DNA of 64,000 nucleotides from NCBI GenBank assembly GCA_003864455.1, contig BGZN01000001.1, positions 49,677-113,676 on the forward strand. The letters run 5' to 3'. The translations under genes were made by a program, and so were the position numbers. Numbering within the stretch: the first letter of the stretch is position 1; each line of letters starts with the position of its first letter. The notes beneath the pieces were generated by a model, which saw nothing but the letters and a program-made list of their open reading frames with translations, had not been told where the DNA came from and made no database searches. Source of the stretch: Candidatus Termititenax aidoneus (GTDB lineage: Bacteria > Margulisbacteria > Termititenacia > Termititenacales > Termititenacaceae). This document shows positions 25,876-64,000 of this stretch, in pieces.

Positions 25876-26061
25876 CTATGCATACATTAGTCGTGTATCA
25901 ACCACACCACCTAATAATACATCAAGCCTTTCATATTCATCAAGTTTTCTAGTGTTAATTCTGAAACAAAACATACTTGTGTAATCTTGAAAATGTTTAT
26001 GAGAAAGAAAAATATAAACACCATTTATCATTCGCTTGTAATGAGAGAACATTACTTCCAT
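25876..26061 (-). pseudogene. C-terminal fragment of an IS1595 (ISXO2-like) transposase
   Basis: FSHYKRMINGVYIFLSHKHFQDYTSMFCFRINTRK resembles the conserved IS1595 C-terminus (FWS.LKR...G.Y..VS.KHL..Y..EF.FR.N.R). Only about 60 codons remain, and it abuts the panC stop. Confidence 0.6.
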
Positions 26062-46807: not shown

Positions 46808-49107
46808 TCGTACCTCCTCACTTCCGTCGCGCTCAAAGTGTCGGAAAACGCGTCAAAACTAAATTCATCGTCTTCATTGCCGGTCAACTTAAATTCCTGT
46901 TCGGGAAAAGCTTTCAAAGAAAAGACCACAAACCATTCCTTGCGCAGCGGCGTAAAATTGTAGCGCATATACCAGCAATGCAAATCCTTGCCCAGGGCAA
47001 AAGTATCCAGATTGAAATATTCTGTATAAAAATCATAAGTGTTTTTGACCAAAAAATGCCATTCCGTCAGCCAAAAATTCCAGACGCTCCCTTCCTGGTA
47101 AGAATCACCCAGATAAAAATCCCATTCGCTGGACGCGGTTTTTAATTTGCCGGCGTAAGCATTTTCCTCAAAATTTTTATTTATATCTTTGGTGAAACTC
47201 AACCGGCCGGCGCTTCGGCCAAAACGCATTTGCAAACCGCCGATCAAATCGCGGTATAGATATGTGTAGCGGCTCTGGCCGGTAGACAAATTGAGTTTGA
47301 GCAAACCGTTTTCCCAGGGGTCGACGCGGAGATTGTACAAATCGTCATCATAAAGATTATTTTCAAAATCTTTGACCATAGTGGCCGTTAACTCTACAAG
47401 CGTTTTGTGATACAGACCGGCGGTGTGTTTGCCGCGCCGCGTCAGATACTGTTTGGGGTCATCGTAAAAAAACGGCGAGCCGCCTTCGCCCTGCGTGCGC
47501 TCATACTCCAATTTGTTCTTGAAAAAACCCCACCAGTCCGCCAGCAGATACGGCCGGTCGGACAATTGATAATGCTGGTCCTGCGTGCCGTAAGCAGCCT
47601 GGTTGTAACTCTCCAGCAGCGTTATTTTGGCCAGCGACTGCGGCAGATCAAAAGTTTTGAAAAAATTATAATTGGCGGTGTACTTGGCCGTCTCAAAAAA
47701 CCGGCGTTTGTTGTACGCGGAAAAATATTTAGACTCGCGCAGCCAGCCGCTGGTGTAACTGGAGTCCACCGAAAACCAGGCCGCCGCTTCGTCCGCGCCC
47801 AAAATATTCTGCCGCACGGCTTTGACGGTGATCTCCGGCGTTTTTTCCACCCACTCCGCGGAAAGCGCGTCGGCCGTCACTTGATCATTATCCAGATCAT
47901 AATAATATTTGGCCTCGACAGTCATTTTCTCAAAAAACTTTTTTTCCTGCGGCGTCAATTCCAAAGAGTGTGTCAAATCCAAACGCTGTTCGTAAAATTC
48001 ATCTTGGGCCGTTTTGGCGCGGTAGTAGACTGGATTGACGCGGTATTTCCATTCGTCGTTGATCTGATAACTTTCATCAATATTCAAAGCCTCATAGCGG
48101 TAGCCGTCGCTGCGGCGGAAATCTTTCTGCCAAACCGTTCTATTGGTTTGCGCGCCCAGCGTCGAATTGGTTTGAAAACTCTGCTGTTCGCGCGCCGCCT
48201 GATAATCCTCGCGGAAAGAATATTCCGCGCGCAGGCGGTCTTCGTCCTCTTGATAGGCGTAGCGCAAAACGTCAGCCATACTGTCGTCATAGCCCTGCGG
48301 CAGAAGATAAGTTTTGCGGTAGCGGTGCTCCAGCTCCAGTTGATTATTCTCCCAAAAATTCAAACGCTGCCGCCAATTTAAGACCAGACTATTCCGCACC
48401 GGCCGGAGGTCCTGCTCGGGCACTTGATAAAAAGAAAAATAACCGGGCTGGCCGTACTCGTAGCGATGCCAAAAGCCGCTGCCGTTGCCTTTTAAAGACA
48501 TGGCGTCCCAGTACACACCGCCTTCATTGTCAGCGTCCAAAAAATACAAAGTTTCCGTTTTGATAAAATTACCTTCGACTGTATTCGAGCCGATTTTCGG
48601 AAAAGTAAAGATCAACCGGCTTGGCCCCGTGTAAAAAACATAATACGGCGTGTAAAAAAGCGGCACCGGCGAAAACCAAAAATGCGCGGTCAGATGATAG
48701 GCCACGATTTTGTCGTCGGGATAATACAAAAATTCTTTGGCGGCCAAGCGGTAATGCGGCGCGAGCAAATCGCAGGAAGTCAAACCGGCCTGCGTGCCAG
48801 CCCAGCGTTCGGCATTTAAAACACTCGCGCCGTCTTTGAAATTGATATAAAATTTTTGCGCGGTCAGGTCCGGCCGCAGCGCGGCCTTGAGGCCGTAAAC
48901 TTCCACACGGCTGCTGCGCGTGTCAATGAAAATCCGGTCAGCCAGCACCTCGCGGCCGTCATAGACCAGACGGGCATTGCCGGAAGCACTGATCTTATCC
49001 GTCTGATAGACCAATTCGTCGCCGCGAATGGTTACCGGCAGGCCTTCCGCAGACCAAAGCCAGGCGGCCGCCAGCCCCAAAAATAATAATGAAAGCCCCC
49101 CCCGCAC
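46804..49107 (-). CDS. LptD/OstA-like outer-membrane protein; start uncertain
   Basis: OstA-N-like segment (IRGDELVYQTDKISASGNARLVYDGREVLADRIFID), then an aromatic-rich beta-barrel-like sequence. GTG at 49107 gives a plausible signal peptide (MRGGLSLLFLGLAAAWLWSAEG). The track's 49326 start overlaps the next ORF. Confidence 0.55.
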   Translation of the reverse strand: MRGGLSLLFLGLAAAWLWSAEGLPVTIRGDELVYQTDKISASGNARLVYDGREVLADRIFIDTRSSRVEVYGLKAALRPDLTAQKFYINFKDGASVLNAERWAGTQAGLTSCDLLAPHYRLAAKEFLYYPDDKIVAYHLTAHFWFSPVPLFYTPYYVFYTGPSRLIFTFPKIGSNTVEGNFIKTETLYFLDADNEGGVYWDAMSLKGNGSGFWHRYEYGQPGYFSFYQVPEQDLRPVRNSLVLNWRQRLNFWENNQLELEHRYRKTYLLPQGYDDSMADVLRYAYQEDEDRLRAEYSFREDYQAAREQQSFQTNSTLGAQTNRTVWQKDFRRSDGYRYEALNIDESYQINDEWKYRVNPVYYRAKTAQDEFYEQRLDLTHSLELTPQEKKFFEKMTVEAKYYYDLDNDQVTADALSAEWVEKTPEITVKAVRQNILGADEAAAWFSVDSSYTSGWLRESKYFSAYNKRRFFETAKYTANYNFFKTFDLPQSLAKITLLESYNQAAYGTQDQHYQLSDRPYLLADWWGFFKNKLEYERTQGEGGSPFFYDDPKQYLTRRGKHTAGLYHKTLVELTATMVKDFENNLYDDDLYNLRVDPWENGLLKLNLSTGQSRYTYLYRDLIGGLQMRFGRSAGRLSFTKDINKNFEENAYAGKLKTASSEWDFYLGDSYQEGSVWNFWLTEWHFLVKNTYDFYTEYFNLDTFALGKDLHCWYMRYNFTPLRKEWFVVFSLKAFPEQEFKLTGNEDDEFSFDAFSDTLSATEVRRYE

Positions 49108-49126
49108 GCTGGTAATTATAACAGAT

Positions 49127-49330
49127 TTAATTGTCCGAATCTCGCAATTTTTGGAGTTTTTCCAGCAAAGAGCCCGGCCTGACATTTTGGCTTTGCTCTG
49201 CCGCCGGCAATTCAACCTGATCGAGGCGGAATTCAAATTTACACTCTGCGCAATCGTGATATTTTTTCTCGCGGTCGATCTTGATCTTGGTCTTACAATT
49301 CGGACAGTTAATAAAAACAAATTCACTCAT
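49127..49330 (-). CDS. Small zinc-ribbon protein, 67 aa
   Basis: CPNC...16 aa...CAEC. Only weak support beyond ORF integrity and position at the head of the lptD-like operon. Confidence 0.4.
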   Translation of the reverse strand: MSEFVFINCPNCKTKIKIDREKKYHDCAECKFEFRLDQVELPAAEQSQNVRPGSLLEKLQKLRDSDN

Positions 49331-50294: not shown

Positions 50295-50690
50295 TCAGAA
50301 ATTATTTTCGGACCGCCAAAACTCCGCGGCGGACATAGTTTGCGGACGTGCCAAATTAAGCTCTAAAAAATGTTTGTCGCCGCTGATTATTATATCGACA
50401 TCGGCCAAAATAGCCGCGTTTAAAATCGGATAATCCTGCGGATCGTTGATAAATTTGCTCGGCTCTTGAGGCGCGGCAATCAATTCATAGGATAATTGCA
50501 TTAATAAAGAGTCCAGGTCTGCGGCCAGTTCCGGCTTTTTTCTAGCGACCACTTCTCTCAACTCAAAAACAATATGATCGCAAAGTACCAACTCATGCTG
50601 TTTAACCACATGCATCAATACTTGCGCCGGCAAAGACTTTGGGAAAAGCAAAGCCGAAAAAATAATATTTGTATCAACAAGTATTCTCAA
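50295..50690 (-). CDS. PIN-domain toxin
   Basis: MRILVDTNIIFSAL, later acidic residues (DHIVFEL, ILADVDIIISGDKHF). Confidence 0.8.
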   Translation of the reverse strand: MRILVDTNIIFSALLFPKSLPAQVLMHVVKQHELVLCDHIVFELREVVARKKPELAADLDSLLMQLSYELIAAPQEPSKFINDPQDYPILNAAILADVDIIISGDKHFLELNLARPQTMSAAEFWRSENNF

Positions 50691-50947
50691 GAGACTTTTT
50701 GCTTTCCATAGCGCAGATCATCAATCAATCCCTGTACTTCTTCCTCTGTCTGAACGTCAAAATCTTTGGCCGCGCCGGAAAAAACGTCTTGCGCCTGCAC
50801 AACAGCCACCGCAGAAGCGTTATTAATCATGATGCCGTTGGAACATTCAATGAATAGAAGCTTGTCTCCGTCTTTAATATGTAACTTCCGGCGTATTTCT
50901 ACAGGCACAGTTACCTGCCCATTGGCTGACACTTTGGCAATATTCAT
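50687..50947 (-). CDS. AbrB/MazE/SpoVT-family antitoxin
   Basis: MNIAKVSANGQVTVPVEIRRKLHIKDGDKL. ATG at 50947 with GGAG 7 nt upstream (the track starts at TTG 50959). Overlaps the PIN gene by 4 nt. Confidence 0.8.
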   Translation of the reverse strand: MNIAKVSANGQVTVPVEIRRKLHIKDGDKLLFIECSNGIMINNASAVAVVQAQDVFSGAAKDFDVQTEEEVQGLIDDLRYGKQKVS

Positions 50948-50998
50948 AATAATCTCCAATATTATTGTTTTTCTTTGTTTTCTTGAGATTCTCTATAT

Positions 50999-51074: not shown

Positions 51075-54000
51075 TTAGACTGGCGCTGGCTCCGGCACAG
51101 GCTCCGGTTCTGGGTTTGGTGCGGGTGCGGGTGCGGGGGCTGGCGCGGGCTGGGGTTTAGCTTCGGCCAGTTTAAGGCCATCAGCGTAAGCCCGCAGCGT
51201 GTCATCGTCCACAAAATCAATAGCGCCGCTGCCGGTAGTTAACGTTACATAAGTGCCTTTGAGACCCTCGCCTGGTTCAACGCTGCCACTTGGAACTGAA
51301 ACGCCATTATTTTCTAATTCGTCATTGGTCATAACTTGAATTATATTTGTCCACAGGCCTTGGCCGTAAATAGCGTCTAACTGAGCCTCAACTTCTGTTT
51401 TCACTCCCTCGTTGTCTACTGTAAATGTGGCTATGGCCGGTCTTTGTCCGGTGGTGTTTTCCGCGCGGTCTAGAGCCAAACCTATCTCCTGTTCAATAAT
51501 ACCTTGATAGTTTACTTTTTGCTCAGTAGAAAGGTTTCGCAAATTATCCGAGGACGGCAGAGGATTGCCATTATTGCCAAAACTGCCAAGTATAGACTGG
51601 CCATTTTGTTCCTGATTGGCTGTGGCGTAGATTTGCGCCTTGTCAGCTCCGACGAGAACACTAATATTTCCTTTAAGCTTCTTCGCTAACTCGTCAATAA
51701 TACTTTGTAATTTGGCCTGATCGCCCTGCGGGTTTTGCAGGAATTTAATTTTCTCTTCTTCAAGTCCCAACTCTGCCAACGCCTGATCGCCCAGGCCTAG
51801 AATAGCTATACGTGAAGCTTCATAATTTATCTCGTTAGCGCTGTTGGGTTTATAACGAATCGCGCCGGAAATCTCCACGCCCGGCTCTTTGGTGTTGGTC
51901 AGAGCGGCAATCAGCGCTGGGTTGATCTCCTTGCCAAGAACCTTTTGTAAAATATCGGCATTGGTAAGCAAGCCATCGGCAGAAGCAAATTGAGTTCCGC
52001 AAACAGCGCGCAGGTCATCGATCCCGCCGGCTACAGAAGAAAGCTGCCCACCAATATTTGGCTCCTGACCGGAAGTATTCACCGCGGGGTTTTTCGTGAA
52101 GATCAACTCACCCACAATATAATCTTGAAATCCTTGCGGGTTGGGAATAGTCTCGCCGCTGTCGGCTGTTTGCGTGAAAGTGCTTTCGATATCCAATAAT
52201 GTTTCGGCCAAATCTTTCTCCACTCTATCGGCAAGGTCTTGGTCTTGACTTAAACCATTGTCCACGATCACTTCTTTGATATTGAGAATAACACCGGCTC
52301 TATACAATAGCGCAGACTGATTGCTTTCCTGCAGCGGAGCGTAAGTGTCCAAATCCGCCAGCATACTTTCGACATCCTCTGATATAGCTTGAAGAATCTC
52401 TACGCCGTCTTTCACTCCGGGGCCGTCGCCGATATTGTTTATCGCCGTACATTGTGCTCTTTCCGCCGTCAAAACAGTTGAAGTAAATTGCGCGCCGCCG
52501 TTCGGAGATTGCTCGGAATACTCCACGGCTTGTCTGCCTATCAGAGACAAATTGCCCCGGTGATAATTATTCACCGCGGTCTTTCCCAACTGCTTCAGAG
52601 AGCGGCCTAGAGTATTGTTGATCCCAAAAGCAGCGCTAAATTCTTCTTCGCGGGCGTTGTTGGTAATCGACCACCAGCCGGGTATTTGCCGGTCAATGCC
52701 AGGAAATTCTTTCCGCAAGAAAGCGCTGAAAGCGGCGGAATCCTGGCCGGAATCGCCGGTGGTTTCGGATAATTGCGTGTTGTAAGCGGCTAGTTTGGGA
52801 TCGTTACTTATATTTTCTAAATTTAATGTAAATCCTCCTAATGCAAGTTGCGTTATTATTTCAGACTCCTGCATCAATAGAGCCGCTAATTTATTTTGTT
52901 TTTCTTCTAGAGTCAGCAGAGGATTGTCCATGATCCCGACAAAGTTATTGGACAGAGCAGACCATGCTCTGTTACTCAAAGTCGGCTTGGGCTTGCTTTC
53001 ATCTTGTGGATCGCTGTCACGGCGGAAATGCTGGGACAGCCAGGCGTTGGCAAACATGTTCTTTTGGGCGCTGATGGATAGAGCGGCCGCTCCGATCCTA
53101 TTGACGTCGGCCGCCATAGCGGACTCGTGATAAAAAGTCATTTGAAGCGGCTTATCGAGCAGTTCCATAGTTTTAAGCACATAAATGGCCAATAGGTTTT
53201 CTTTATTTTTGCTCAAGGCTTCGCTGGGATTTTTTTCACCAATACTTGTACAAATAGTCTGGCCGTATTCCGTTAATTGCCCATAAGCAGACAGGAAAGA
53301 ACCTTCCTGCCAAGGATTGGTCAGGCCGAAAATTTGATCGAACGCGGCAATATTATCTCCGTTCAAGATACCGGCGGCCTGCAGTTCATCACGCAAGTTG
53401 ACAATAGAACTCTCAATCTCAGCAATGCTGGCGCCCCGGACAATGTTGCCTTCCAGAGTATTGAATCTCTCGTTAATCAGTCTTCCAGCCGCGCCGGACA
53501 TAGACTGACGTGGATCCAGCAAAATATTTAACTGTTCTTTAAATAAAGGAGTAACATTTTCCAGGTTCACATTAGCCACATTCTTGGGATCGGCCAGGGC
53601 GATAATCTTAGCGTCCAGCCGATTCATATCGCGCCGGTTGAGTTGCAACAACTCCGCGGTGGTTTCCATATTATTGGCCAGCACAGCCACTCTGGAATAA
53701 ATGCCGCCGGCTGAGCGGCTCAGACCATTGGCATGGGCAGATCCGGCAGCAGAGACGCTGTCGCCGATCGAAGCTTGCAAAGCCCTAATTATTTCGCCGA
53801 GCTTACCTTGATTGTATTCAATTTCTTTCAAGTCGAACCGCATCTGCTTGATCTCTCCTTCCAGTTCAGCCAGCTCTATTTTTTCGTCTGGGGACAATGT
53901 GCCTTCTTTGTCTTTCAATTCTTCATAGCGCGGAGTTATGGCATTCAGGCGCTGCTGGGTTTGCAGGAGCGCGGTTCGCAGAGCGGCTGTAAGCATTTGA

Positions 54001-57000
54001 TATTCCGGTATATCATTTAAACTGCGTCCGCCAAAACGGAGTTGATATTCTATACTAGTAACAGCCTGTGTAAAACCTTCAGCCGTTATAGATTCGGCAT
54101 ATTTGGCCAGTTCGGGAAATCCGGTGAGGAGAGTTATTTCCAGCTCTTGCAGTTTTTGATTATCGGCAATTAACTCTTGGGCTGCTTTTGCTCTGACAAC
54201 TGCTTCTGTAGAAGACTCTGTTTTCGGCGGCGCTGGAGTTTCGGAAACATTTGTTTCTTCATTTGGAATAAGCATTCCATTATTAACTTCATCAACATCC
54301 CCTTGAATGGCGTTCTGGTAATCCTGAAGATCAGCTTTTTTAGATTCCAAACCAGTTATCTGTCCTTGCAGAGCATCTTTCTGCTTTTGTAAATCATCTT
54401 TGCTCAGCGGAGGATCAGAATTTTCAGCCGCTTCAATTTGCGCTCTCAGTTCTGCAATTTGTTCATCCAGTTCGCTTATTTTGCCATTCAACAGGGTTGA
54501 GACCCGGTCTTTTACAGCATTTAAGGGTTTGGGGTTTGACTGGTCAGTTTTAAAACTATCTCCTACAAAGTTAATTTTCTGTTCCCGCAAGTCGCTTTGC
54601 AGTCCCTGCAAAATATTTTTCCGCTCTTGCAAAAGTCCTTGCAGAGCATCTTTCTGCTCTTGTAAAGCCTCTTCGCTCAGCGGAGGATCAGAATTTTTAG
54701 CCGCTTCAATTTGCGCGCTCAGTCCTGTAATTTGTGCTTCTAATTCCGCGATTTGTTTTTCTTGCTCTGTAATTCTCGTTTCCAGTTCCGTAATCTCTTT
54801 CGGCGGCAGAGACAGAACCTCAGCAATTATATCTTCATCTTTTCCCGGTACGATTTCGGCGGCTATTTTGTCGGCAAGCATTTGCTGCCGGATCTGCGGG
54901 TTGTTTTCTATTGCCGCTCTGGTCTGTTCGGCCTGGCCGGGACCGCGGGTCGATCCCGGATTTGATTTTTCCAGTTCGGCCTGAGCGCGCACTTTCAGCA
55001 GATTGTCATATTCCTCTCGTTGTTTCTCAGTTAAGCCCTTAGGCTGCTGCTGCTGAGCCAGGTCCTGATATGACTTGATCCAAGTATCCGCGGTTTTACT
55101 AATATCGTCCATTTTCCGCGCATAAGTCCTGCTGTCAAAACCGCCTCCGAGCGGCGGCAAATTAACAATATTCTCAAAACTCTCGCCTGGCATAAAACCA
55201 ACCGGCACGCCCAGTTTTTTGGCTATATTCAACCGATGCATAGCCTTTTGTTCCTCCAGGCCCGCGACAGCCGCAGTGGATATTGCCGATTCACGCCGCG
55301 TCCGGGGGTCGTTGGCCAGCTCGCTCTCTATAGCCCGCTTTCTGGCGGCATCGCCTCGAGCCACGCGAGTGGTCAGGCTCAAACCTCTACCGGGATGGGT
55401 TTTGTTGACTCCCGTAGTGATCGCATCCAGACATTGTTGGCGCGGGCTTTTGATACTGCCATTACCGCCGCCGGCCAGGTCAAATACTTGATTATCCACA
55501 CGGACGACAAAATTACCGTCGCCGCCCAGAAAATTAAGCACTTCATCCAGCATATCCGGAGGCAGTTTGGCAGTGTCGATCGTTACCAGACAAGGTTGAT
55601 CGCCGCCCTGCGTAAAACCTCGCGGGAAAGATACGCCAAGCTCGTTAAGCCAGCTTTGTTTTTGCTGAAACGCTTCTTGCGCTTCTATAAATGTCTTTTG
55701 CTCACCCGGTAAAGTCTTGGCGCGGTCTGTCCATATTGCCCGATCTTCCTCCGAAAGCGAAGTTCCTTTCGGCAAAAACTCATCCGGCTGTGGAAAATCA
55801 GGCAGCTTCGGCAAGGGTTGTCCATCTGCTCTGGCCTTGATTGCCTCGGCTACCGCTTTGTCCCACTTCGCGCAAGCTTTATTCCACGCAGCCGCAACCT
55901 TTTTAGAACTAAACACCGGACCGGGCAGAGGCGCTGGCGGCGGCTCTGACAAGCGTTCCTTTAATAAATTTCCGACCTCTTCATTGGTGTATTGTATCTC
56001 TTGATAACCACCAAAAACTTCGTACAAGCCCATAAAAGCCTCGTAATCTTTTTTGGCCTGCGTAATAGTTTTCTCCGGCAGCGCAGCCGCCGGCGCTTCG
56101 GTCTGAGCAGAGGCTTCCTCGGCCGCTTGAAGGTCTCCGCCTTTTTCCACGGCATCTATTTTTGCAGTATTTATTTCGGCAATGGTCGTTGTTTTAAGCT
56201 CTCCAGTACCGGCCTCTTTATAAATAATAACGGTTTGAGCCGCGGCCTCATACTCAGTTTGCTGTTCGGGTGTGGGGTTTTCCGGCAAAGGCGAACAAAA
56301 ATCAGCGGCGACAGCCTGTATCTCTTCAGCAGTATAGGCTTGATCGCGCGGCAGCATGATCTGCGGCGCGCCATCTTTATTACTTTTCACGTAATAAGTA
56401 ATTTCCCGGCCACCCACAGAAACAGCTCTTTTCTCGTAAGAAGCAAACTTGTCTTTAGATGCTGTAAAATCCGCGCGCACGCTTTCGTAGCCTTTATTGT
56501 TATCATCCAGCATGGCGTGGACAGCGTTGCGCGCGGCGGCGCCCTCGCCAGTGGCAACACCCTGCGCCTTTGCAAAAGCCTCCTCCAGCTCTGCATCACT
56601 GATCCTTTGGAGAGAAATTCCCTGACTAATATTCCCTCTTAGTTCGGCCGCGCTAAAATCAGTATCCGGATTTTTCGCGGCATGGATGAAAAGATCCGCC
56701 GCGGCCTGATAGGACGCCGCTTCACCCAGACCTCTCTGCTGGAGTATCTCGGCAACCGGCTTCAGCACTTCTTTTTCATATCGCTCGACCAGATTTTCAA
56801 ATTCCTGCGGATGATGAATGCTCAGCCATTCGAGAAAGGCCTTTCCGTCCCCGCCCGGCACAAAACCCGGATCATTCAGCATCGCTTGAACTACAGAACT
56901 ATCAATTGCCAGCGCCCGGTCGCGGCTGTCGTAAATTTTTTCCTGGATACTTTTGGCGGCAAGCTGGATCAACCCAAATACAGTACCTTCCCGGGTGGAG

Positions 57001-60000
57001 ACATCTCCGCCGCGGCCGTGCATTAAATTGCTCACCGCTTCATTGGCGGCGGAAGTGGCCTGCACCAGTTTTTCGCTCTCGGTCATGTAAGAGCTGACCA
57101 GCGTGGACATCAGCTCTTTGGCGTCGCGCGGATCGAGCAGGGCCAGCAACTCGCCATCCACGGCGCCTTTCATCTCCCCGGCCTTTTCCTTGGCGCCGAG
57201 ATTGGCCGCGATAGCTTTGGCAATGTTTTCGAGAGCCTTGGTCACATTATTGATAGCGGCCATTGTGCCATTGTTAAAAGCATTGCTGTGCACATCAGTC
57301 ATAGTCATGCTCAACTCGCCGTTTTCATTAAGCGTCGCCGTGCCTTTCATACCTCCGCCGGACATCTCAAAGCTGACACTGCCGTCGTCATTATGTTTGG
57401 CTTTTCCGGTGTAGGTCTGGCCTCCAGCTTTAACAGTCAAGCTTTGGGCATTGCCGTCTTTGCCATAAGTAACTGTCGCTTTGCCGCTGCTGGCGGCTGC
57501 GCCCGCCGGAGCAGGCGTGTCAGCCTCGCCGCCCGTACCCGCAGGGGCCTGGCCGCCTGAAGTATCCGCGTCCAGAGCTCCGCCTGACGTACTGGCGATA
57601 GCAGGCGCGCTATTTTGACCCGCAGCGGTACTGCTGCTAGCTCCAGCAGCCGCCGGTTTATCTTCACCGGCTATCGACACTGGCGATACTGTCACTTCTA
57701 CAGATTTCTTGCTCTTAGGCTCGCCGGTGAGAGAGAGGCTGGCGGCGGGGACGGAGGAGCTGCCGCGAGTCTCACCAGCTTTTGTAGCATCGATGTTAAT
57801 TTCTCCTGTCTCTGAATTATAGGTACCGGAAACACTGACGCCGCCCAGCAAATTATCCGGATCAAGAGCTTTCCAAGAGCCGTTATCCTGCTGCTCAAGA
57901 GCAAACTCACCGATACCATCAATAGACAGCGTTGGTCCATTTTCGCCCGTAAAATTTATCGTGCCCTTATACGTAGCGCCGTCGAAATCCATGGAAACGG
58001 CGGCAGTATCATCAAGTTCTTCATGCGAACCAGTTTTGACTTGATCCGTGCGAACATATTCTTTATGCGAACCAGTACTGACTTTGTCGGTACGACACAG
58101 CTTATATCCGCCATTGCCATCACGCTCAACTTTGTAGTCTTTACCGCCAACATTTACCGGCTTTTCTGATGCGATTGCTGCGTCAAGCTGCGCGCTTGAG
58201 AAACTCTCACTGCTGTCACCGCCAAATGTAAACAGGCCATTAGGTTTTTGCGTTGTTGTGCCGGGTGTTGTTGTTTCTCTGGCAGGTCCGCCGAAAATAC
58301 CCACCTGCATTTGACCATTACTTTGCATCTGAAAACTGCCGCCGCTAGCCTCGCTTATCATTTTATCTGACATTATTGAAACCGATTTTCCTTGGGGAAT
58401 ATTTCCGCCAGAAACTTGAATGACACCATCTTTCAATGTGTAGGTGTAGCCATTACGACTATAGGAACCACCATTATTTTCTATGGCTTCCACTCTAGCG
58501 TTATAGTCGGCTTCAGACATACCAATTACACTATTGTTAGTTTTGTCTTTCCCCATTTGCGTCACGGCATATTTGACCCTCTCATCATCTCCAGCAAAAT
58601 CGCCTGTTTGCATCCCTGAATAACTACCCACGCCGCCATTAATCACGCTAGTTCGTTGTTGAAATAACTTATTTGGATCTGTTACATCTAACTCAACAAT
58701 AGTATGTTGCGCCTGGGCGCCTCTTTCATTAGTACCCAAATTTCTATAAGACACTTCTGCTGAATATGTCGTTTTTCCCGGGATATATTCAGTATCCACA
58801 CCTTGTGTTCCAGACAGTACGCTCTCTACATCCTTAAAATCCTCTACATCTCTAAAGATATCCTGATCCGTATATTCATCTACGTTATGGCTACCGCGTG
58901 TGCCACCGCCGCTGCCAGTAATAGTCTCCGGCTCTGCCGCCGCCGTAACCATTACCGTCGGCTGTTGGCGCGCGGTCAAAGCGCCCAGCTCAAAGAGTTT
59001 GCCGTCCAGAATGTCCACCGCCAATTGGAGCAAGCCTATAGCCACGCTGCCAAATGTCGCGCCGCCGCGACCATTTCCGTCAACTTTGTCGGCATTAATG
59101 CCAAAAGCGTTATTATTCTGACCGCCGCCTTCCGCACTGCTGCCAGTATTGCGGCCCAGACCCAGCGCTTGTTTGAAATTGTTGATCATCTGTCCCAGAC
59201 CGGTGTTGCCAAAGTCCGCTCCGGAGCCAGTCTCATCCGCGCCGATCATAAATCTGCCAGTGCCGAATATGCCTTTATAAGTTTTTTCTTTTGTTGTCAT
59301 CATTGGCTTGTCATCAGTGTCTTTTACTACGTTGCCATTTTCGTCTTTCACTTTCTCATACTTATCCACCGTCATTTCTTTGGCCCAGGAATTTTTGAGG
59401 GTTTCGGCCGTTTTGAGAGCTTTCGCTGTGGCGGAAATCACGCTGCTGCCGGCGCTGAGCATTTTGTCGATCAGCGCGTCTTGTTTATTTTCCAGATTTT
59501 CACGTCCCTGCGCGATATTGACCAACTGGTTAAGCAGAGCTTCGGCCAGGCCGCTCTCCGCGCCGGCGATCATTTCCGCCGAGGCGATGATCTGCGCGCC
59601 GCTCGTGCCGCTGATCTTAGAGGTAACGCGGGAGCGGGCGTCATTTTTGGCTTTGTGCAGTTTGCGCAGGATAGTCTTGAGCCGCTCGGTCTTTTTGAGC
59701 TGCGCCTGCGCCATTTGCAGCTGAAATTTAGCTCCGGCGCCAGTGCTGGCGGTGATCTCCGGCGCCTCGGTTTCGTTGAGAGTTGTTCTGTCCTCGTCAT
59801 AAGAAACTTTATTTTGCATAGTCTTTTTGCCCAATTTCACCGCGTCATCGCGTTGTTTTTGTTCTTTTTCGAGCAATTCGGGATAGGCCTTAAAGAAAGT
59901 CCAGATCGAACTGACCAGATCGAGTATAGCGTTGCTCAGAGCGGCATAACCGTACATCATTTCGATAACGCCGAAAAATTTCGTGAAAAAATAAGGCGAA

Positions 60001-63000
60001 GCTAGCGTGGCTATAGCCATTGCGCCAATCACACCCATGCCGATACCGGAAATTATGGCTTTTACTCCAGCGTCATTAAAAGCGGTCTGGGCATCCAGAT
60101 GTTTTTGCTGCAGGGCCAGCATATCGTTGACATTCTGGGCAAAATCCGAAGCTTTTTGCGCGGCAAATTGCTGTTCCGCGCTGACCGCCGCTTGTGAATA
60201 GCCGCTCAAAGCCACACCGCCGATATTGGTCAAAACCTGATGCACCATATTGCGTGAAGCCGAGCGCGCGCTGTACATAGACTGCAGTATCGCCGTCAGA
60301 TAACTGTCGCCATAAATGGCGCTCATAGTCTCTTCCATCTTCTTATAGTTCAGCGTCAGATGATGTATTTTTACATCAATCCCAAAAAATCCAGAAGCAA
60401 AACCAGAAACCTCATTACCATCGATATAGTCGCTGTATTGAAAACCGGAGTAAACACTTTCGGCTGAGCTATTTTTGCTTGTCCCGCTGGTCTTATCGTA
60501 AAAAACCGCGCGGCTTTTATCCAAGGCCGCCGCTTCAGCAGCGCCAATGCCGCCGTTGCCGCTTATGTTAATGGCCTTAATGCTGCCCTGGGGATCGATC
60601 TTCAGATGCGTGTCCCAGGCTATCGCGTCATAAGCCAGCGCGGTCAGCCAGGACAGCGGGCCGGTAATGCCGACCAGCAGAGACTTGATGCGTCCCTGAT
60701 CTCTCTCCAGCCGCGCATTAGCCGACTGCACGCGCTGCTCCTCGCGTTGTGTATAAGCGGCGATCACCGAATTGACGTAATTTAATTCCGCGCTAAGCGC
60801 TTGCTCCGCTATGCTGGTAACATTGTAAGTGTTGGCATTGGTCAACTCCTGATGGACAATATTGCGCGATTCCAGTTCGTAGCGCTCCAGCATAAAAGCG
60901 GCGCGGGCTACATTGGTCTTGGCCAGAGCATCCAGGCGCAGCTGCGCAATGCGCGCGCGGTACAGCATTTGATATTGCTTGGGCGTATCTTTACGCAGGC
61001 CGTCATTCTCAAAACTATAGCCAAAACCAGTCCAGGTATTGCCGCCGCCGCCAAAAACGCCGTTGATCAAACCCTGCACATCGTTGTTGGGAATACTGCC
61101 GGACGCGCCGCCCAAAAGCGAAGCGGCCTGATCACCCAGCCTGGAAATAGAGGCCAGCGGATTTTCTTTGGCGTCCGCCGTGCCTGTCCCCACTTTGGCC
61201 GAAGCGGAGCCGGAAGTCGGCCCATAAAAACTGGTTACAACGCCCTTGCCAAATTCCGCTTGGACATTTTTCATCTGCTCGCCGGTCGAGGCAAAACTGC
61301 CAACATAAGCCGCGCGACTCAAAATATCCGATCCGGCCGGACTGTCAGCGGCAGAGCCGCTGCCTTCAAAACGGCTCAGACTAAGATGCGGACGCACATC
61401 GTCTTTGTCCCACAAAAACTCCAGCTTATCAAAGATCGCTCCGGCCAAAGTCAAAACTGTCTGGCCGCCCGGAGTTTTATTGCCCAGAGCCAGAGAAATA
61501 AATCCGTAAACCAGCGCGGCTGTGTCGAGAGCCGCTCTAGCCGCGGTCTTGACCGCTTCAGTGACCGCTTGCTCGTGAGCGTTAAAAGCCGCGATAAATT
61601 CCTGGCGCACAGTTTTTAACTCATTAAATTTTTCCACAATAAGCGACTGTTCCTGCTCGGTCAGGCTTTCGGCCAGCGAAGAAGTTGTGTAGCCGGATTT
61701 GGAAGTCAACTCGGTATGGACGGCATTGCGGGCATTGGCCTTGCCGGAATGTAAACTGATCAGCACGCGGTTAATATTCTGCAGAGAATTGAGCTGTAAT
61801 TCCATTTCCAGCAATTTCTCATCATTTTCATAGATCAGGCCGTCCGGACCTTGCTTGAAGCGCACGCTTTCTACCTGGTCGAGCAGGTCGTATTGCGCGT
61901 ACATATTGCTGGCAATAGCGTGCAGAGGTGAAGCTGCGTTGGCTTTGTCCGCCGCGTAAGTATTAGTCCCCGGCTCCACGAGCCATTTTTGGGCGCTGTA
62001 TTCCGAATTGAGCAGACTGGTTTGAGCCGCGTCGCGTTTTTTGCCGGTGATCTGGCTGGCCTTTGCGCTGGCAAAAACAGATTTAGTGATACTGCTGGTA
62101 GCAGACAAAGCGGTGGCGAGCAGGCCGATAGCTTTATTGGTCATGCCGCTGACCGTATCGCTCAATTGTTTATTGGCTTCTTGGCTAATTTCATTTGTAA
62201 CTTTGGTGGCAATAGCCGTAGCGATGGCCGTAGGCTGCCCGCCCGGGACAAGCGCTTGAGCAACTGATGCGACGCTGCCAGCGATAGAAGTTGCAGTTGC
62301 GGTCACAGCAGCCGCGGTTAAAATACCAGCCACAACAATAGCCGCAATGACAGCGGCGGCCATGCCGCCAAGCGCAACGCCGATAGCCACTCCCGTATTG
62401 CCGCCCAGGAAACCCACAATACCAGCGGTAGTCAGCGAAGCCATAGCGCCAACTCCAATTATCGCGGCGGCAGTAGTCGCAGTACCAAGCGCAATAGAAG
62501 CTGTGCCGAGACCATCTTTAACACCTTCTGCAAGTGAAGCGGTAGTCGCAGTGGCAGGCTCGCTAACAAACATATTAAGAGCACTAGCGGTAGCATTTGA
62601 CACATCCGTAGCACTGGACCCGGCATTCGCCAGCAGGGACAGCGGCGTGACGACCAGCATGCCCAGCAGACTGGTCAGGGTCGTCGCGCGCTCTATAGCC
62701 TGCTGCCAGGAATCTGCTTCTTTGGTCTTGATCGACTCCAGTAATTGATTGTGCTGCGCCACTATGCCGACGGCTTCTTTTTTGAGCTCGTTAACGCCTT
62801 TGAGGAGCATGTCAGTTTCTGTGGAGATTATCTGCGAGGCTTTCATGGACTTGTAAGCTTCGTCAGAGCCGACGCGCTCCAGTTCCGCGCCTACTATATT
62901 GTAAGCCTCGTTCTGCGCTTCCATGACCATAGCCAGGAAAGATAATACAGCGCGCTGCAGTAGCAGTTTGCCCCGCGCTTCCTCAAAAGAAGCGTCATCA

Positions 63001-64000
63001 AAAGACCAGAAATTATCTTCTCCGCCTTTGATATGCTTGCCGATATTCATCGTTTCCGCGACGGCTTCTTGTGTGTTGTACTTATTCACACTCCACCAGG
63101 AAGCATTGGCGTCCGGCTTGCTGCCTTCGGCGGAATTACCGGCATTGACACCTTTCAATGTATTCAGAGCGCTATAGGCGGCTTTGGCTGTAGTGCCTGT
63201 CCACACGCCGGGCACCCACATGTCCGATTCGTAAAAACCCTGAATTGTTTTATTGGCGTCTTTGTCCAACTGCTTATAAGAGGCGTTGTAGCTATCCGCC
63301 ACATACCCGGCCTTGGGGTTGAATCTCTGCACAGTGCGGCTGTAGAGATTGTTTTCGAGACTGTACTCCTGGCCGAAATCCACGGCGAGGGACAGCGCCT
63401 CGGCCGGCACGTAACTGTTCATGGACAGCAGATCCTCGGCGGTCTTGACCAGCTCCAATTGCAATTGCGGGCTGACTATCCTGTCCGAAAAATCAAAAAC
63501 TCGGGTTGCGCCGCTGCTGTCCTCATAGAGCATGACCCATTGTTTCTCACCGGAAGCTTTGTCTGTGGCTTCGCAGACACGCGCGTTGGGCAGGGTGATA
63601 CCCTGCTTAGCGGCGAGAGCCAGAAGCGCATTGACCGCCAGCAAAGCCAGATTTTGTGAAGCGCCGGCTTTGGTGTCGATGACTAAACTCTGGCTTGGGA
63701 AAACATCCTGCAAATCTAAACACTGATATTCAGTTTTGATAAAATTAAAAAGCTTGGCGGCGATCTCGTCCATAGAAAGCCCGGTCAAATCCATCGCGCT
63801 TTCAAACTCCGCTAAAAATTTGCTCACAGCCGGATCGGTCGGATCGATATAAGCCTTAGCATTATTTTCCAGAGCTTCGAGCTGCGCCGCCGCGCCAAAA
63901 ACTTTGTTGTCGTTGAAACGGAAATACACATCGAATTTCAGTTCGCTGGCCTGTTTCAGATCGGAGAGCTTGGCGATATTGCCTTGTTCGGCAAAAGCGG
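51075..64000 (-). CDS. Giant hypothetical protein, more than 4,300 aa; N-terminus beyond the right window edge
   Basis: ORF track: 4,284 codons from GTG 63929. I read the 23 in-frame codons upstream (63930-63998: AFAEQGNIAKLSDLKQASELKFD) and found no stop, so the ORF is open to the edge. Gly/Ala-rich hydrophobic blocks, a recurrent helical module, coiled-coil duplication and a PAPAPAPAPAPNPEPEPVPEPAPV tail. No known enzymatic or adhesin motif recognised. Confidence 0.85.
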   Translation of the reverse strand, partial: AFAEQGNIAKLSDLKQASELKFDVYFRFNDNKVFGAAAQLEALENNAKAYIDPTDPAVSKFLAEFESAMDLTGLSMDEIAAKLFNFIKTEYQCLDLQDVFPSQSLVIDTKAGASQNLALLAVNALLALAAKQGITLPNARVCEATDKASGEKQWVMLYEDSSGATRVFDFSDRIVSPQLQLELVKTAEDLLSMNSYVPAEALSLAVDFGQEYSLENNLYSRTVQRFNPKAGYVADSYNASYKQLDKDANKTIQGFYESDMWVPGVWTGTTAKAAYSALNTLKGVNAGNSAEGSKPDANASWWSVNKYNTQEAVAETMNIGKHIKGGEDNFWSFDDASFEEARGKLLLQRAVLSFLAMVMEAQNEAYNIVGAELERVGSDEAYKSMKASQIISTETDMLLKGVNELKKEAVGIVAQHNQLLESIKTKEADSWQQAIERATTLTSLLGMLVVTPLSLLANAGSSATDVSNATASALNMFVSEPATATTASLAEGVKDGLGTASIALGTATTAAAIIGVGAMASLTTAGIVGFLGGNTGVAIGVALGGMAAAVIAAIVVAGILTAAAVTATATSIAGSVASVAQALVPGGQPTAIATAIATKVTNEISQEANKQLSDTVSGMTNKAIGLLATALSATSSITKSVFASAKASQITGKKRDAAQTSLLNSEYSAQKWLVEPGTNTYAADKANAASPLHAIASNMYAQYDLLDQVESVRFKQGPDGLIYENDEKLLEMELQLNSLQNINRVLISLHSGKANARNAVHTELTSKSGYTTSSLAESLTEQEQSLIVEKFNELKTVRQEFIAAFNAHEQAVTEAVKTAARAALDTAALVYGFISLALGNKTPGGQTVLTLAGAIFDKLEFLWDKDDVRPHLSLSRFEGSGSAADSPAGSDILSRAAYVGSFASTGEQMKNVQAEFGKGVVTSFYGPTSGSASAKVGTGTADAKENPLASISRLGDQAASLLGGASGSIPNNDVQGLINGVFGGGGNTWTGFGYSFENDGLRKDTPKQYQMLYRARIAQLRLDALAKTNVARAAFMLERYELESRNIVHQELTNANTYNVTSIAEQALSAELNYVNSVIAAYTQREEQRVQSANARLERDQGRIKSLLVGITGPLSWLTALAYDAIAWDTHLKIDPQGSIKAINISGNGGIGAAEAAALDKSRAVFYDKTSGTSKNSSAESVYSGFQYSDYIDGNEVSGFASGFFGIDVKIHHLTLNYKKMEETMSAIYGDSYLTAILQSMYSARSASRNMVHQVLTNIGGVALSGYSQAAVSAEQQFAAQKASDFAQNVNDMLALQQKHLDAQTAFNDAGVKAIISGIGMGVIGAMAIATLASPYFFTKFFGVIEMMYGYAALSNAILDLVSSIWTFFKAYPELLEKEQKQRDDAVKLGKKTMQNKVSYDEDRTTLNETEAPEITASTGAGAKFQLQMAQAQLKKTERLKTILRKLHKAKNDARSRVTSKISGTSGAQIIASAEMIAGAESGLAEALLNQLVNIAQGRENLENKQDALIDKMLSAGSSVISATAKALKTAETLKNSWAKEMTVDKYEKVKDENGNVVKDTDDKPMMTTKEKTYKGIFGTGRFMIGADETGSGADFGNTGLGQMINNFKQALGLGRNTGSSAEGGGQNNNAFGINADKVDGNGRGGATFGSVAIGLLQLAVDILDGKLFELGALTARQQPTVMVTAAAEPETITGSGGGTRGSHNVDEYTDQDIFRDVEDFKDVESVLSGTQGVDTEYIPGKTTYSAEVSYRNLGTNERGAQAQHTIVELDVTDPNKLFQQRTSVINGGVGSYSGMQTGDFAGDDERVKYAVTQMGKDKTNNSVIGMSEADYNARVEAIENNGGSYSRNGYTYTLKDGVIQVSGGNIPQGKSVSIMSDKMISEASGGSFQMQSNGQMQVGIFGGPARETTTPGTTTQKPNGLFTFGGDSSESFSSAQLDAAIASEKPVNVGGKDYKVERDGNGGYKLCRTDKVSTGSHKEYVRTDQVKTGSHEELDDTAAVSMDFDGATYKGTINFTGENGPTLSIDGIGEFALEQQDNGSWKALDPDNLLGGVSVSGTYNSETGEINIDATKAGETRGSSSVPAASLSLTGEPKSKKSVEVTVSPVSIAGEDKPAAAGASSSTAAGQNSAPAIASTSGGALDADTSGGQAPAGTGGEADTPAPAGAAASSGKATVTYGKDGNAQSLTVKAGGQTYTGKAKHNDDGSVSFEMSGGGMKGTATLNENGELSMTMTDVHSNAFNNGTMAAINNVTKALENIAKAIAANLGAKEKAGEMKGAVDGELLALLDPRDAKELMSTLVSSYMTESEKLVQATSAANEAVSNLMHGRGGDVSTREGTVFGLIQLAAKSIQEKIYDSRDRALAIDSSVVQAMLNDPGFVPGGDGKAFLEWLSIHHPQEFENLVERYEKEVLKPVAEILQQRGLGEAASYQAAADLFIHAAKNPDTDFSAAELRGNISQGISLQRISDAELEEAFAKAQGVATGEGAAARNAVHAMLDDNNKGYESVRADFTASKDKFASYEKRAVSVGGREITYYVKSNKDGAPQIMLPRDQAYTAEEIQAVAADFCSPLPENPTPEQQTEYEAAAQTVIIYKEAGTGELKTTTIAEINTAKIDAVEKGGDLQAAEEASAQTEAPAAALPEKTITQAKKDYEAFMGLYEVFGGYQEIQYTNEEVGNLLKERLSEPPPAPLPGPVFSSKKVAAAWNKACAKWDKAVAEAIKARADGQPLPKLPDFPQPDEFLPKGTSLSEEDRAIWTDRAKTLPGEQKTFIEAQEAFQQKQSWLNELGVSFPRGFTQGGDQPCLVTIDTAKLPPDMLDEVLNFLGGDGNFVVRVDNQVFDLAGGGNGSIKSPRQQCLDAITTGVNKTHPGRGLSLTTRVARGDAARKRAIESELANDPRTRRESAISTAAVAGLEEQKAMHRLNIAKKLGVPVGFMPGESFENIVNLPPLGGGFDSRTYARKMDDISKTADTWIKSYQDLAQQQQPKGLTEKQREEYDNLLKVRAQAELEKSNPGSTRGPGQAEQTRAAIENNPQIRQQMLADKIAAEIVPGKDEDIIAEVLSLPPKEITELETRITEQEKQIAELEAQITGLSAQIEAAKNSDPPLSEEALQEQKDALQGLLQERKNILQGLQSDLREQKINFVGDSFKTDQSNPKPLNAVKDRVSTLLNGKISELDEQIAELRAQIEAAENSDPPLSKDDLQKQKDALQGQITGLESKKADLQDYQNAIQGDVDEVNNGMLIPNEETNVSETPAPPKTESSTEAVVRAKAAQELIADNQKLQELEITLLTGFPELAKYAESITAEGFTQAVTSIEYQLRFGGRSLNDIPEYQMLTAALRTALLQTQQRLNAITPRYEELKDKEGTLSPDEKIELAELEGEIKQMRFDLKEIEYNQGKLGEIIRALQASIGDSVSAAGSAHANGLSRSAGGIYSRVAVLANNMETTAELLQLNRRDMNRLDAKIIALADPKNVANVNLENVTPLFKEQLNILLDPRQSMSGAAGRLINERFNTLEGNIVRGASIAEIESSIVNLRDELQAAGILNGDNIAAFDQIFGLTNPWQEGSFLSAYGQLTEYGQTICTSIGEKNPSEALSKNKENLLAIYVLKTMELLDKPLQMTFYHESAMAADVNRIGAAALSISAQKNMFANAWLSQHFRRDSDPQDESKPKPTLSNRAWSALSNNFVGIMDNPLLTLEEKQNKLAALLMQESEIITQLALGGFTLNLENISNDPKLAAYNTQLSETTGDSGQDSAAFSAFLRKEFPGIDRQIPGWWSITNNAREEEFSAAFGINNTLGRSLKQLGKTAVNNYHRGNLSLIGRQAVEYSEQSPNGGAQFTSTVLTAERAQCTAINNIGDGPGVKDGVEILQAISEDVESMLADLDTYAPLQESNQSALLYRAGVILNIKEVIVDNGLSQDQDLADRVEKDLAETLLDIESTFTQTADSGETIPNPQGFQDYIVGELIFTKNPAVNTSGQEPNIGGQLSSVAGGIDDLRAVCGTQFASADGLLTNADILQKVLGKEINPALIAALTNTKEPGVEISGAIRYKPNSANEINYEASRIAILGLGDQALAELGLEEEKIKFLQNPQGDQAKLQSIIDELAKKLKGNISVLVGADKAQIYATANQEQNGQSILGSFGNNGNPLPSSDNLRNLSTEQKVNYQGIIEQEIGLALDRAENTTGQRPAIATFTVDNEGVKTEVEAQLDAIYGQGLWTNIIQVMTNDELENNGVSVPSGSVEPGEGLKGTYVTLTTGSGAIDFVDDDTLRAYADGLKLAEAKPQPAPAPAPAPAPNPEPEPVPEPAPV

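Follow-up and report, generated by a model that had tools for sequence, protein, structure and literature searches.

A giant open reading frame of Candidatus Termititenax aidoneus belongs to a Margulisbacteria-restricted protein family with a LapG-like head and a candidate membrane-inserting core

What kind of protein is encoded by a bacterial open reading frame (ORF) of more than 4,300 codons that carries none of the usual marks of giant proteins? The question is raised by 64,000 nucleotides of contig BGZN01000001.1 of Candidatus Termititenax aidoneus, here called the window, in which such a frame occupies the minus strand and runs out over one edge. Compared with other sequences, the giant is a member of an undescribed protein family restricted to the Margulisbacteria. 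Only its N-terminal domain falls in a known superfamily, that of the LapG-like proteases. For the core module, its five-fold arrangement and the accompanying genes, the collections searched have no curated counterpart. Since the N-terminal domain is also used in a way unlike LapG, we rate the family as outside the known kinds.

The giant gene is real. A sequence-only reading of this DNA had described an uninterrupted frame of 4,284 codons that stays open for a further 23 codons up to the edge, placing the true N-terminus outside, and both statements hold. In the ORF listing the frame measures 4,284 amino acids (aa) from its first GTG (51075..63929), and the translation of 51075-63998 contains 4,307 sense codons with no stop to the window edge, 23 of them beyond the GTG. 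Chance does not produce such a run, because (61/64)^4307 is about e^-207. Residues are given below as window aa, counted from the window edge (63998 downward) and not from that GTG; homologous proteins are labelled P0001 onward and related loci L001 onward, the L002 ORF being P0005. Window residue 1 aligns to residue 236 of P0001, residue 242 of P0005 (248 of the L002 ORF) and residue 253 of the L004 ORF. About 240-250 N-terminal residues are therefore missing and the full protein would have about 4,550 aa. The homologues are collinear past the window edge, so the GTG at 63929 is an internal codon. All that is said here of the N-terminus of the window protein is inferred from these homologues.

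An artefact, be it a chimeric assembly, a pseudogene or an open frame that codes for nothing, is very improbable. Codon usage offers some ground for one, as the correlation with 14 housekeeping genes of the window is r=0.80 overall and 0.89 for the first quarter of the gene but 0.55-0.71 for later quarters, with a lower GC content at third codon positions in the C-terminal three quarters. Against it stand the 4,307 codons without a stop and a complete 4,587-codon orthologue in L002. The N-terminal ~1,530 residues are collinear with at least four homologues, and the last 1,015 match an independent protein at 60% identity, which speaks against the chimera or frameshift that the sequence-only reading had allowed for. 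Long repeats are absent; the direct repeats in the gene are one of 112 nt in two copies (at 54362 and 54635) and one of 37 nt in two copies, with none longer.

Nor does the giant fall in a usual giant-protein class, in agreement with what had been said from the letters alone. Pfam and NCBIfam searches over the whole protein returned no family at threshold, neither non-ribosomal peptide synthetase (NRPS) or polyketide synthase (PKS) domains nor immunoglobulin (Ig)-like or cadherin domains, only sub-threshold coiled-coil noise at aa 3060-3240. Searches of PDB sequences, PHROGs and PADLOC likewise gave no family match at threshold. No GGxGxD nonapeptide of the repeats-in-toxin (RTX) type and no HExxH was found by regular expression. 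The earlier statement that there is no P-loop is borne out, as the sole Walker-A-like string, GNIPQGKS at aa 1865, lies within a Gly/Ser-rich stretch with no surrounding NTPase domain and is judged a chance match. An NRPS/PKS megasynthase was rejected, with no condensation, adenylation, ketosynthase, acyltransferase or carrier domain in Pfam or NCBIfam.

The sequence-only reading had missed that the giant has relatives, in at least 55 sequence clusters. We searched 1.84 billion protein representatives exhaustively with HMMER, using a profile of nine modules taken from the window and P0001 only. At E<=1e-3 it matched 55 cluster representatives; a limit of 1e-10 leaves 38 of them and one of 1e-30 leaves 17. 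The length of complete members ranges over 1,244-5,152 aa, and almost all have five matched stretches. The make-up of this profile gives the five-stretch architecture independent support, as it draws on the window and P0001 alone and nearly every other complete member still shows five. Against a 239-module profile, which includes its own five modules, the giant has a full-sequence E of 1.3e-159. Every taxon-bearing name in the family is Margulisbacteria or 'WOR-1', and tblastn found no match in 50,697 phage or 72,556 plasmid records. Two surveys place the Margulisbacteria among the phyla richest in huge proteins, and one adds that these are without a COG functional assignment. We found no paper naming the family or linking Margulisbacteria with transglutaminase-like proteins.

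The nearest relatives come from Candidatus Termititenax persephonae and from metagenome-assembled genomes (MAGs) of termite-gut Margulisiibacteriota. P0001 is a partial protein of T. persephonae, L002 encodes the complete orthologue, and L004 encodes a paralogue of more than 5,036 codons. P0001, P0005, the L004 protein, P0003, P0004, P0002 and P0006 are collinear with window aa 1 to ~1,530, at 42-55% identity for the closest homologues and ~30-32% for P0006. Beyond aa ~1,530 the similarity breaks into patches, of 21-28% at ~2205-2700 and ~3260-3830. A genome can have several paralogues, with at least three members in MAG Gx481_bin108 (L002, L004, P0059) and at least two in T. persephonae (L001, L005). 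Two family copies lie on opposite strands in L006. In the Termititenax-type termite-gut lineage the members are enlarged, to 3,600-5,150 aa.

The shared core consists of five helical modules of ~170-200 aa. An alignment of 19 segments (~170 aa) gives their order as a short beta hairpin (G-D-G), a helix A with [AS]-R-[NS]-x-V-H-x-E-[ML]-T at its end, a loop, helices B and C, and a hydrophobic stretch. Helix A ends with R-N-x-V-H-x-E-M-T-G-x-x-G, and there is usually a moderately to strongly hydrophobic segment. Across 239 modules the consensus is R in 85%, V in 76%, H in 66%, E in 68%, M/L in 90%, T in 66% and G in 60%, with an Asn ~45 residues on in 74%. The motif is degenerate in modules 0 and 4 of the giant, as in its closest homologues, and is sharper in distant members, for example RNLVHQEMTGIGGR. 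Module k aligns best with module k of other family proteins, and we therefore read the array as an ancient five-fold duplication.

After the motif, a Kyte-Doolittle hydropathy over 19 residues (KD19) of >=1.2 is reached in 60-97% of modules, depending on position, against 12% of control windows from the same proteins, and KD19>=1.6 in 26-66% against 1%. The sequence-only reading had singled out two glycine-zipper-like blocks. Hydrophobicity scans confirm both, but they are not isolated, being the ends of modules 0 and 3. The first (62205-62681) corresponds to window aa 438-459 plus 496-598; its uncharged part has a comparable counterpart in L002 and L004 and a shorter one in P0001. The second (59889-60068) is the module 3 hairpin, where modelled helices 927-992 and 1001-1059 (model numbering) turn at window aa ~1333-1340. 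An AlphaFold2 (AF2) model of window aa 341-1540 from 33 sequences (mean confidence, pLDDT, 62; pTM 0.62) has helices 40-96 residues long, whose turns fall within the hydrophobic stretches. Long helices with hydrophobic turns are predicted, and the core is a candidate for membrane insertion. Foldseek with this 1,200-residue model found no significant fold match in PDB or BFVD. Its noise-level neighbours were transmembrane domains of ATP-binding cassette (ABC) exporters, AhlB/XaxB/PaxB, F-BAR domains, IncA, OprM and tape measure proteins. The module profile gave no match to PDB sequences.

The head of the family is a LapG-like Cys-His-Asp protease domain, D1, predicted from profile and fold. Some 170-230 residues in from the N-terminal end, 22 family members share GGDCEDL, GDHVYVEY and VLDP, and the triad is intact in these 22 homologues; the triad part of the giant's own D1 lies beyond the window. 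A profile of 12 protease-domain sequences matched LapG 4fgo at 2.6e-4 in PDB, followed by 3isr, a Cytophaga transglutaminase-like protease (6.6e-4), and Pseudomonas fluorescens LapG 4u65_E (7.9e-4). The AF2 model of P0005 aa 1-600 contains two well-predicted domains, D1 at 87-270 and D2 at 290-470, with pLDDT ~85-94 for the two and ~85-90 for D2. Foldseek ranked LapG structures 4fgp, 4fgo and 4fgq best for this model (E 1.7e-5 to 6e-5, probability 1.0, TM-score 0.52-0.57), ahead of 3isr, the CPR-C4 protease and vasohibins. Where the two overlap, the modelled P0005 and the window have 70% identity, and the window's D2 is tied to D1 by alignment. In Pfam, Transglut_core and the related arylamine N-acetyltransferase fold stayed sub-threshold on homologue domains (17.7-22.2 bits against a cutoff of 23), and window residues 1-233 matched neither Transglut_core nor Peptidase_C93.

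D2 follows D1 in the giant's subgroup as a dead duplicate. GDCEDL has become GASQNL, replacing the Cys by Ser, and the His is Gln with the Asp retained, leaving D2 with an incomplete Cys-His-Asp triad. With neither the Cys nor the His left, the protease-like domain that the window contains is a pseudo-enzyme.

Family N-termini carry neither a Sec nor a Tat signal and have no hydrophobic h-region. Their first 30 residues are 31% S/T/N/Q and 5% K/R, against 18% and 19% in the housekeeping proteins of the window (K/R p 8e-8). A shared peptide, [A/G]-G-x-x-x-x-P-x-Y-[LI]-x-x-[DE], lies within residues 10-35; the strict pattern is present in 17 of 43 members and looser forms in more. The close homologues P0001, P0004, P0005 and L006 have it as AG..P.Y[LI]..[DE]. 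In P0001 and P0004 the N-terminal peptides include AAAG and TAAG, which fit the published LapG site [T/A/P]AA[G/V]. The giant contains [TAP]AA[GV] six times against two expected, neither at modules nor at conserved positions, a weak lead.

Behind the core comes a quickly diverging C-terminal extension, 200 to 3,400 aa long, in which paralogues differ from one another. The giant has 42-55% identity to homologues over its N-terminal 1,500 aa but at most 24% over the C-terminal part, except for the 60% shared with its nearest relative, P0058/P0059, a fragment from the same termite-gut Margulisbacteria MAG as L002 and L004. From this match the tail is taken to be a conserved, folded region among close relatives, yet fast-evolving family-wide. 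A profile of the C-terminal region gave no match to PDB sequences. The Pro-Ala/Pro-Glu ending noticed from the letters is present as KPQPAPAPAPAPAPNPEPEPVPEPAPV. An ending PEP(A)PV is common to the nearest subgroup (..SEPMPEPV in P0005, ..KPEPAPVLN in P0003). A PEP-CTERM sorting signal was considered and rejected, as neither a hydrophobic helix nor a cluster of Arg follows the terminal ..PEPEPVPEPAPV. Several paralogues and a fast-diverging C-terminus, as read from these alignments, are features typical of proteins that interact with other cells.

Table 1. Features of the giant ORF in the window, and two gene arrangements at related loci.
Feature	Coordinates	Strand	Window aa	Details
Giant ORF	51075..64000	-	1-4307	4,307 sense codons plus stop at 51075-51077; ~240-250 N-terminal codons past 64000
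End of D1	63915..63998	-	1-28	Last strands; alignment of P0001, P0005 and L004; strand 263-269 of P0005 model is window aa 22-28
D2, dead LapG-like/transglutaminase-fold duplicate	63312..63854	-	49-229	D2-D1 alignment; BLASTP 30% identity
Conserved linker between D2 and module 0	63042..63311	-	230-319	RFNP..GYVAD and FWSFDD; invariant alignment columns; 48-55% identity to homologues
Module 0	62523..63041	-	320-492	Degenerate motif EAYNIVGAEL aa 364-373; hydrophobic helix aa 438-459
Uncharged Gly/Ala/Thr/Val/Ile-rich block	62205..62513	-	496-598	103 residues; expanded hydrophobic end of module 0
Module 1	61359..61868	-	711-880	ARNAVHTEL aa 756-764; short hydrophobic hairpin aa ~820-860; AF2 pLDDT 74-89
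Module 2	60486..61028	-	991-1171	SRNIVHQEL aa 1044-1052; hydrophobic segment aa 1107-1128
Module 3	59868..60413	-	1196-1377	SRNMVHQVL aa 1248-1256; hydrophobic helical hairpin aa 1310-1370
Module 4	59268..59759	-	1414-1577	ARSRVTSKI aa 1454-1462; hydrophobic end weak in giant
Gly/Ser/Thr-rich region	57399..59261	-	1580-2200	By composition, looks like short beta units and low-complexity linkers; poorly conserved, 24% patches to P0003
Weakly conserved region	55899..57386	-	2205-2700	Patches common to P0005, P0002, P0004 and the L004 protein, 22-42% identity
Duplicated coiled-coil segment ISELDEQIAELRAQIEAAENSDPPLS	54279..54821	-	3060-3240	DNA copies 54362-54473 and 54635-54746; sub-threshold coiled-coil Pfam
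C-terminal region	51138..54182	-	3273-4287	60% identical to P0058/P0059; 21-24% to P0003, P0004, P0005
Pro-Ala/Pro-Glu tail	51078..51158	-	4281-4307	Ends PEPAPV
Conserved cluster	L007 16387-25948; L010 14670-22221; L011 16253-26132; L013 1-4371; L015 19140-27863			Coordinates of each locus
Run in the L009/L016 subclade	L009 22070-32047; L016 20118-21688	same strand		L016 contig ends after the 150-aa gene

Which genes accompany the family? A conserved, Margulisbacteria-specific set of ~8-10 genes without Pfam matches adjoins or contains family members at L007/L008, L010, L011 and L015, which encode shorter relatives, and at L013. It comprises a 78-114-aa ORF directly upstream of the family member, small ORFs downstream, proteins of 543-678, 164-192, 131 and 539-573 aa, and a protein joining a family 2 glycosyltransferase (GT2) to tetratricopeptide repeats (TPR). 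The 78-114-aa ORF stands immediately upstream of a family member in at least 10 related loci, and by analogy its position may be reminiscent of secretion-chaperone gene arrangements. Small bitopic proteins of the cluster have a transmembrane helix followed by a K/E-rich helix, with K/R directly after the transmembrane helix. The conserved neighbours gave no Pfam match even at E<=1, models of FlgK, FliD, FliS and flagellin included, and the idea that they are diverged flagellar late proteins (FlgK, FliD, FliS) was rejected. L010 holds two family members in tandem. In L011 a 77-aa ORF beside the family member (16820-17053, plus strand) contains VHRELAGLGG, which resembles the module motif VHxEMTGIGG; the window has no further module-bearing ORF. 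In the L009/L016 subclade there is a tight same-strand run of genes for a 97-aa protein, the giant family member, and proteins of 287/288 and 150/151 aa. The L009 run continues with genes for FlgD_ig (880 aa) and SLH/Glucodextran_B (1,270 aa) proteins, FliK, a 195-aa protein and FlgE.

We tentatively favour, at somewhat less than an even chance, a giant that acts as a multi-hairpin membrane-inserting anchor or translocon with a variable contact region, processed by its own protease. The hydrophobic-tipped helical modules would be the membrane-insertion elements, the tail may be the interacting part, and the LapG-like protease may process the giant. The five modules would jointly form a multi-point insertion device, similar in design to alpha-helical pore-forming toxins and the translocators of secretion systems, which stay soluble until their hairpins enter a bilayer. 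The core would anchor the protein in a membrane, either that of its own envelope or that of a partner cell, with the long variable C-terminal region displayed as a contact or adhesion part. The LapG-like domain would process or release the protein in cis. Export would follow a route independent of a signal peptide; membrane proteins exported by specialised secretion systems have membrane segments that are moderately, not highly, hydrophobic. In spirochaete-attached Termititenax, the role of the enlarged versions (3,600-5,150 aa) would be to attach cell to cell. The sequence-only reading had guessed at an envelope-spanning fibre, a membrane-inserting or contact-dependent effector, or a scaffold; its interpretation is partly upheld, and both of our leading readings fall within that range. 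A fuller version is unlikely, though worth stating. The family would be the core of a Margulisbacteria-specific, signal-peptide-independent cell-contact machine, in which one chain with five pore-former-like hairpins, a covalent pseudo-oligomer, inserts into a membrane, possibly that of the partner spirochaete. It would be matured by its own LapG-like protease, and its helpers would be the conserved neighbours without Pfam matches, namely the product of the small upstream ORF, proteins of ~550-680 aa and the GT2-TPR enzyme. Partner specificity would lie in the hypervariable tail, several thousand residues long.

Several observations weigh against an exported, membrane-inserting giant. A positive-inside analysis gave an ambiguous picture, with K/R enriched only upstream of the hydrophobic blocks (73 against 26), a poor fit to a simple hairpin with both flanks on one side. 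Fold likeness to AhlB, XaxB, PaxB and IncA is at noise level (E>=1.2, TM-score <=0.3). The protease domain is absent from about half of the family, so the core function cannot depend on processing. None of the family members has a secretion system, an ATPase or an outer-membrane component next to it, and the conserved-cluster proteins contain neither a module nor a Walker A motif. The L011 neighbours that were read have no signal peptide, which fits intracellular assembly equally well. The attachment role builds on the published attachment of Termititenax to spirochaetes.

Much of the same evidence would suit a protein that is never exported, a cytoplasmic scaffold tethered to the inner membrane. 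Here the signal recognition particle with YidC/Sec would insert the hairpins, the protease domains, stalks and C-terminal extension would be cytoplasmic, and the whole would organise a membrane-associated structure together with its signal-less neighbours. Somewhat unlikely when taken by itself, this is nearly as likely as the inserted anchor. It accords with the lack of a signal peptide on family N-termini and on the L011 cluster proteins read, with secretion machinery not being linked to the family, with hairpins that require no translocation of large domains, and with bitopic cluster proteins whose K/R after the transmembrane helix suggests cytoplasmic coiled coils. The housekeeping neighbourhood, the PPDK-DnaG-RpoD synteny with L013 and the housekeeping-like codon usage of the N-terminal quarter (r=0.89) point the same way. 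Diverging paralogues and a hypervariable C-terminus would be unusual for a housekeeping scaffold, many of the hydrophobic segments are short or only moderate and rich in G/A/S/T, and the solved structures closest to the protease domain are those of LapG, which is periplasmic. The composition of the N-terminus fits instead a substrate or accessory of flagellar type III export, its K/R-poor, S/T/N/Q/I-rich start being the signal and the small upstream ORF the chaperone, as would the same-strand run in L009/L016, which in L009 reaches FlgD_ig, SLH, FliK and FlgE, and the GT2+TPR protein at other loci, an architecture also seen in flagellin glycosyltransferases such as GmaR. We consider it doubtful, as flagellar genes are adjacent at one locus only among those whose sequence extends to that point and are absent from 51 kb of the window, FlgD_ig is an Ig-like domain widespread on surface proteins, and no cluster protein matches the FlgK, FliD, FliS or flagellin models at E<=1.

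A protease and five near-identical motifs in one chain could also make the giant a self-cleaving polyprotein, in which the LapG-like domain cuts the exposed loop after each motif and the five hairpin subunits form a ring or pore. The AF2 model places the motif where a helix passes into a loop, the 77-aa L011 neighbour holds VHRELAGLGG, and AAAG/TAAG in the N-terminal peptides of P0001 and P0004 fit the LapG site. We regard this as improbable, since about half of the members carry the motifs without a protease domain, the motif is not a dialanine site, and no [TAP]AA[GV] in the giant (6 against 2 expected) falls at a module. In the window protein the helix part of the motif is preserved and the loops are divergent (SKSGYT, NANTYN), which suggests a structural role for the motif. 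A LapA-type adhesin of a type I secretion system (T1SS) under LapG control, or another known giant class (RTX toxin, NRPS/PKS, Ig-repeat adhesin), is largely refuted. The size of the giant, the LapG-like fold at its N-terminus, the lack of an N-terminal signal peptide, as in T1SS substrates, and an extreme C-terminus conserved in the subgroup recall such proteins. There are, against this, no RTX nonapeptides and no Ig, cadherin or NRPS/PKS domains, no T1SS genes stand next to any member, the protease is part of the giant and not a separate periplasmic enzyme, and the Pro-rich tail is unlike T1SS signals. A tape measure protein of a phage or injection system, or a prophage or plasmid gene, would have long helices and hydrophobic segments and could in principle use a papain-like fold domain on the cell wall, and the top viral fold matches in BFVD are indeed tape measure proteins. 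Those matches are not significant (E>=0.04, TM-score <=0.1), PHROGs gave no match, there are no phage genes in the window or related loci, and the chromosomal position is syntenic with L013. With no significant Foldseek match and no tblastn match in phage or plasmid records, the tape-measure and mobile-element readings are therefore rejected.

How does the family compare with known systems? Like LapG and the other bacterial transglutaminase-like cysteine proteases (BTLCP, MEROPS C93), its N-terminal domain has the same fold, Cys-His-Asp in the same order and the motif D.W...E.I...GGDCEDL, and LapG structures are its best matches both by sequence profile and by fold. LapG, however, is small and free; made with a signal peptide, it works in the periplasm, in trans, on an adhesin of a T1SS. 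The family domain is instead fused in cis at the N-terminus of a giant, lacks a signal peptide and has a dead duplicate behind it. LapA-type RTX adhesins share with the family giant size, the lack of an N-terminal Sec signal, a link to a LapG-type protease and dialanine-like sites near the N-terminus of two relatives (AAAG/TAAG in P0001 and P0004). Unlike them, the family has no RTX repeats, Ig-like stalk, retention module or nearby T1SS genes, and its core is made of five helical modules with hydrophobic tips.

The ClyA-family toxins (AhlB, XaxB, PaxB, MakA) and the translocators of type III secretion systems (SipB, IpaB, YopB) are long amphipathic helical bundles with a hydrophobic end hairpin and no Sec signal, a design that the predicted helices and hydrophobic turns of the core would share, and such proteins are among its top-ranked fold matches. 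Foldseek gave E 1.2 for AhlB, 3.2 for XaxB and 3.6 for PaxB (TM-score <=0.29), and no Pfam ClyA, HBL or SseC match was found. The known proteins have 300-600 aa and one hairpin and are oligomeric, whereas the giant has five modules in one chain and thousands of further residues. Large clostridial and MARTX toxins combine a cis cysteine protease, a hydrophobic translocation region and large extra domains in one chain, as the giant may. The family has no sequence or fold likeness to their cysteine protease (CPD), glucosyltransferase or delivery domains, and its protease fold is transglutaminase/LapG-like where theirs is of clan CD. Phage tape measure proteins resemble it in long helices, hydrophobic segments and sometimes a hydrolase domain; they differ in that fold matches are not significant and that there is no PHROG or phage match, no phage context and no five-module motif.

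One 'orphan giant' of the Margulisbacteria thus becomes a defined family with a searchable signature of five modules, RNxVHxEMTG and a LapG-like head, marked further by a conserved gene neighbourhood and by size expansion in the Termititenax-type termite-gut lineage. If insertion and contact are its function, the family would represent a new means by which a diderm bacterium anchors itself to another cell or delivers into it, and a candidate physical link between Termititenax and its spirochaete partners. If it is a scaffold, it would add a giant, membrane-bound cytoskeletal element of a new type to the sister lineage of the Cyanobacteria. On either reading, the cis-fused LapG-like domain and its pseudo-enzyme twin widen the known uses of the protease fold.

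The window itself is ordinary chromosome of a diderm bacterium. It encodes a sigma-54 activator, HisF, three sigma-70-family genes, DnaG, PPDK, TopA, PanC, an MsbA-like ABC exporter, LpxB, TatC, FabF, a ParA-like ATPase, Lnt and SmpB. The giant stands among housekeeping genes here and in L001, L002, L004 and L012, and L013, the locus of the 5,152-aa P0006, has the order giant...PPDK-DnaG-RpoD, as in the window. DnaG is followed in the window by three successive sigma-70-family genes of 440, 337 and 302 aa (8985-14080, minus strand). Neither the giant nor any of 12 related loci has adjacent genes for an ABC transporter, a membrane fusion protein (MFP) or a TolC-like protein. The only ABC exporter in the 51 kb downstream (30859-32589) is ~18 kb away, among genes for lipopolysaccharide and sugar nucleotides, and is without an MFP or TolC partner.

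Directly downstream of the giant's stop lies a toxin-antitoxin gene pair (50295-50959, minus strand), whose antitoxin is of MazE/AbrB type and has 90 aa and whose toxin has a PIN domain and 131 aa. A sigma-70-like promoter match falls at 51027-50999. The second large ORF at the other window edge (1-3776, minus strand), also noticed from the letters, is present. It has at least 1,258 aa, starts with MVRQLY... at 3776 and has its C-terminus outside; it has no Pfam match and, with no sequence similarity to the giant, is not a paralogue of it. Two further ORFs without a Pfam match (840 and 257 aa, 46034-49326, minus strand) lie upstream of Lnt on the same strand. A low-GC island at 23619-25685 (GC 0.34 over 24001-26000) contains an N6/N4 DNA methylase gene (24669-25685, minus strand) beside tRNA-Val and tRNA-Glu and may be an inserted restriction-modification element. 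The Rfam DUF3800-V RNA motif RF02964 was found at 7089-7186 on the minus strand (48.4 bits, E 1.7e-7), directly after a DUF3800 gene at 6428-7084 on the plus strand.

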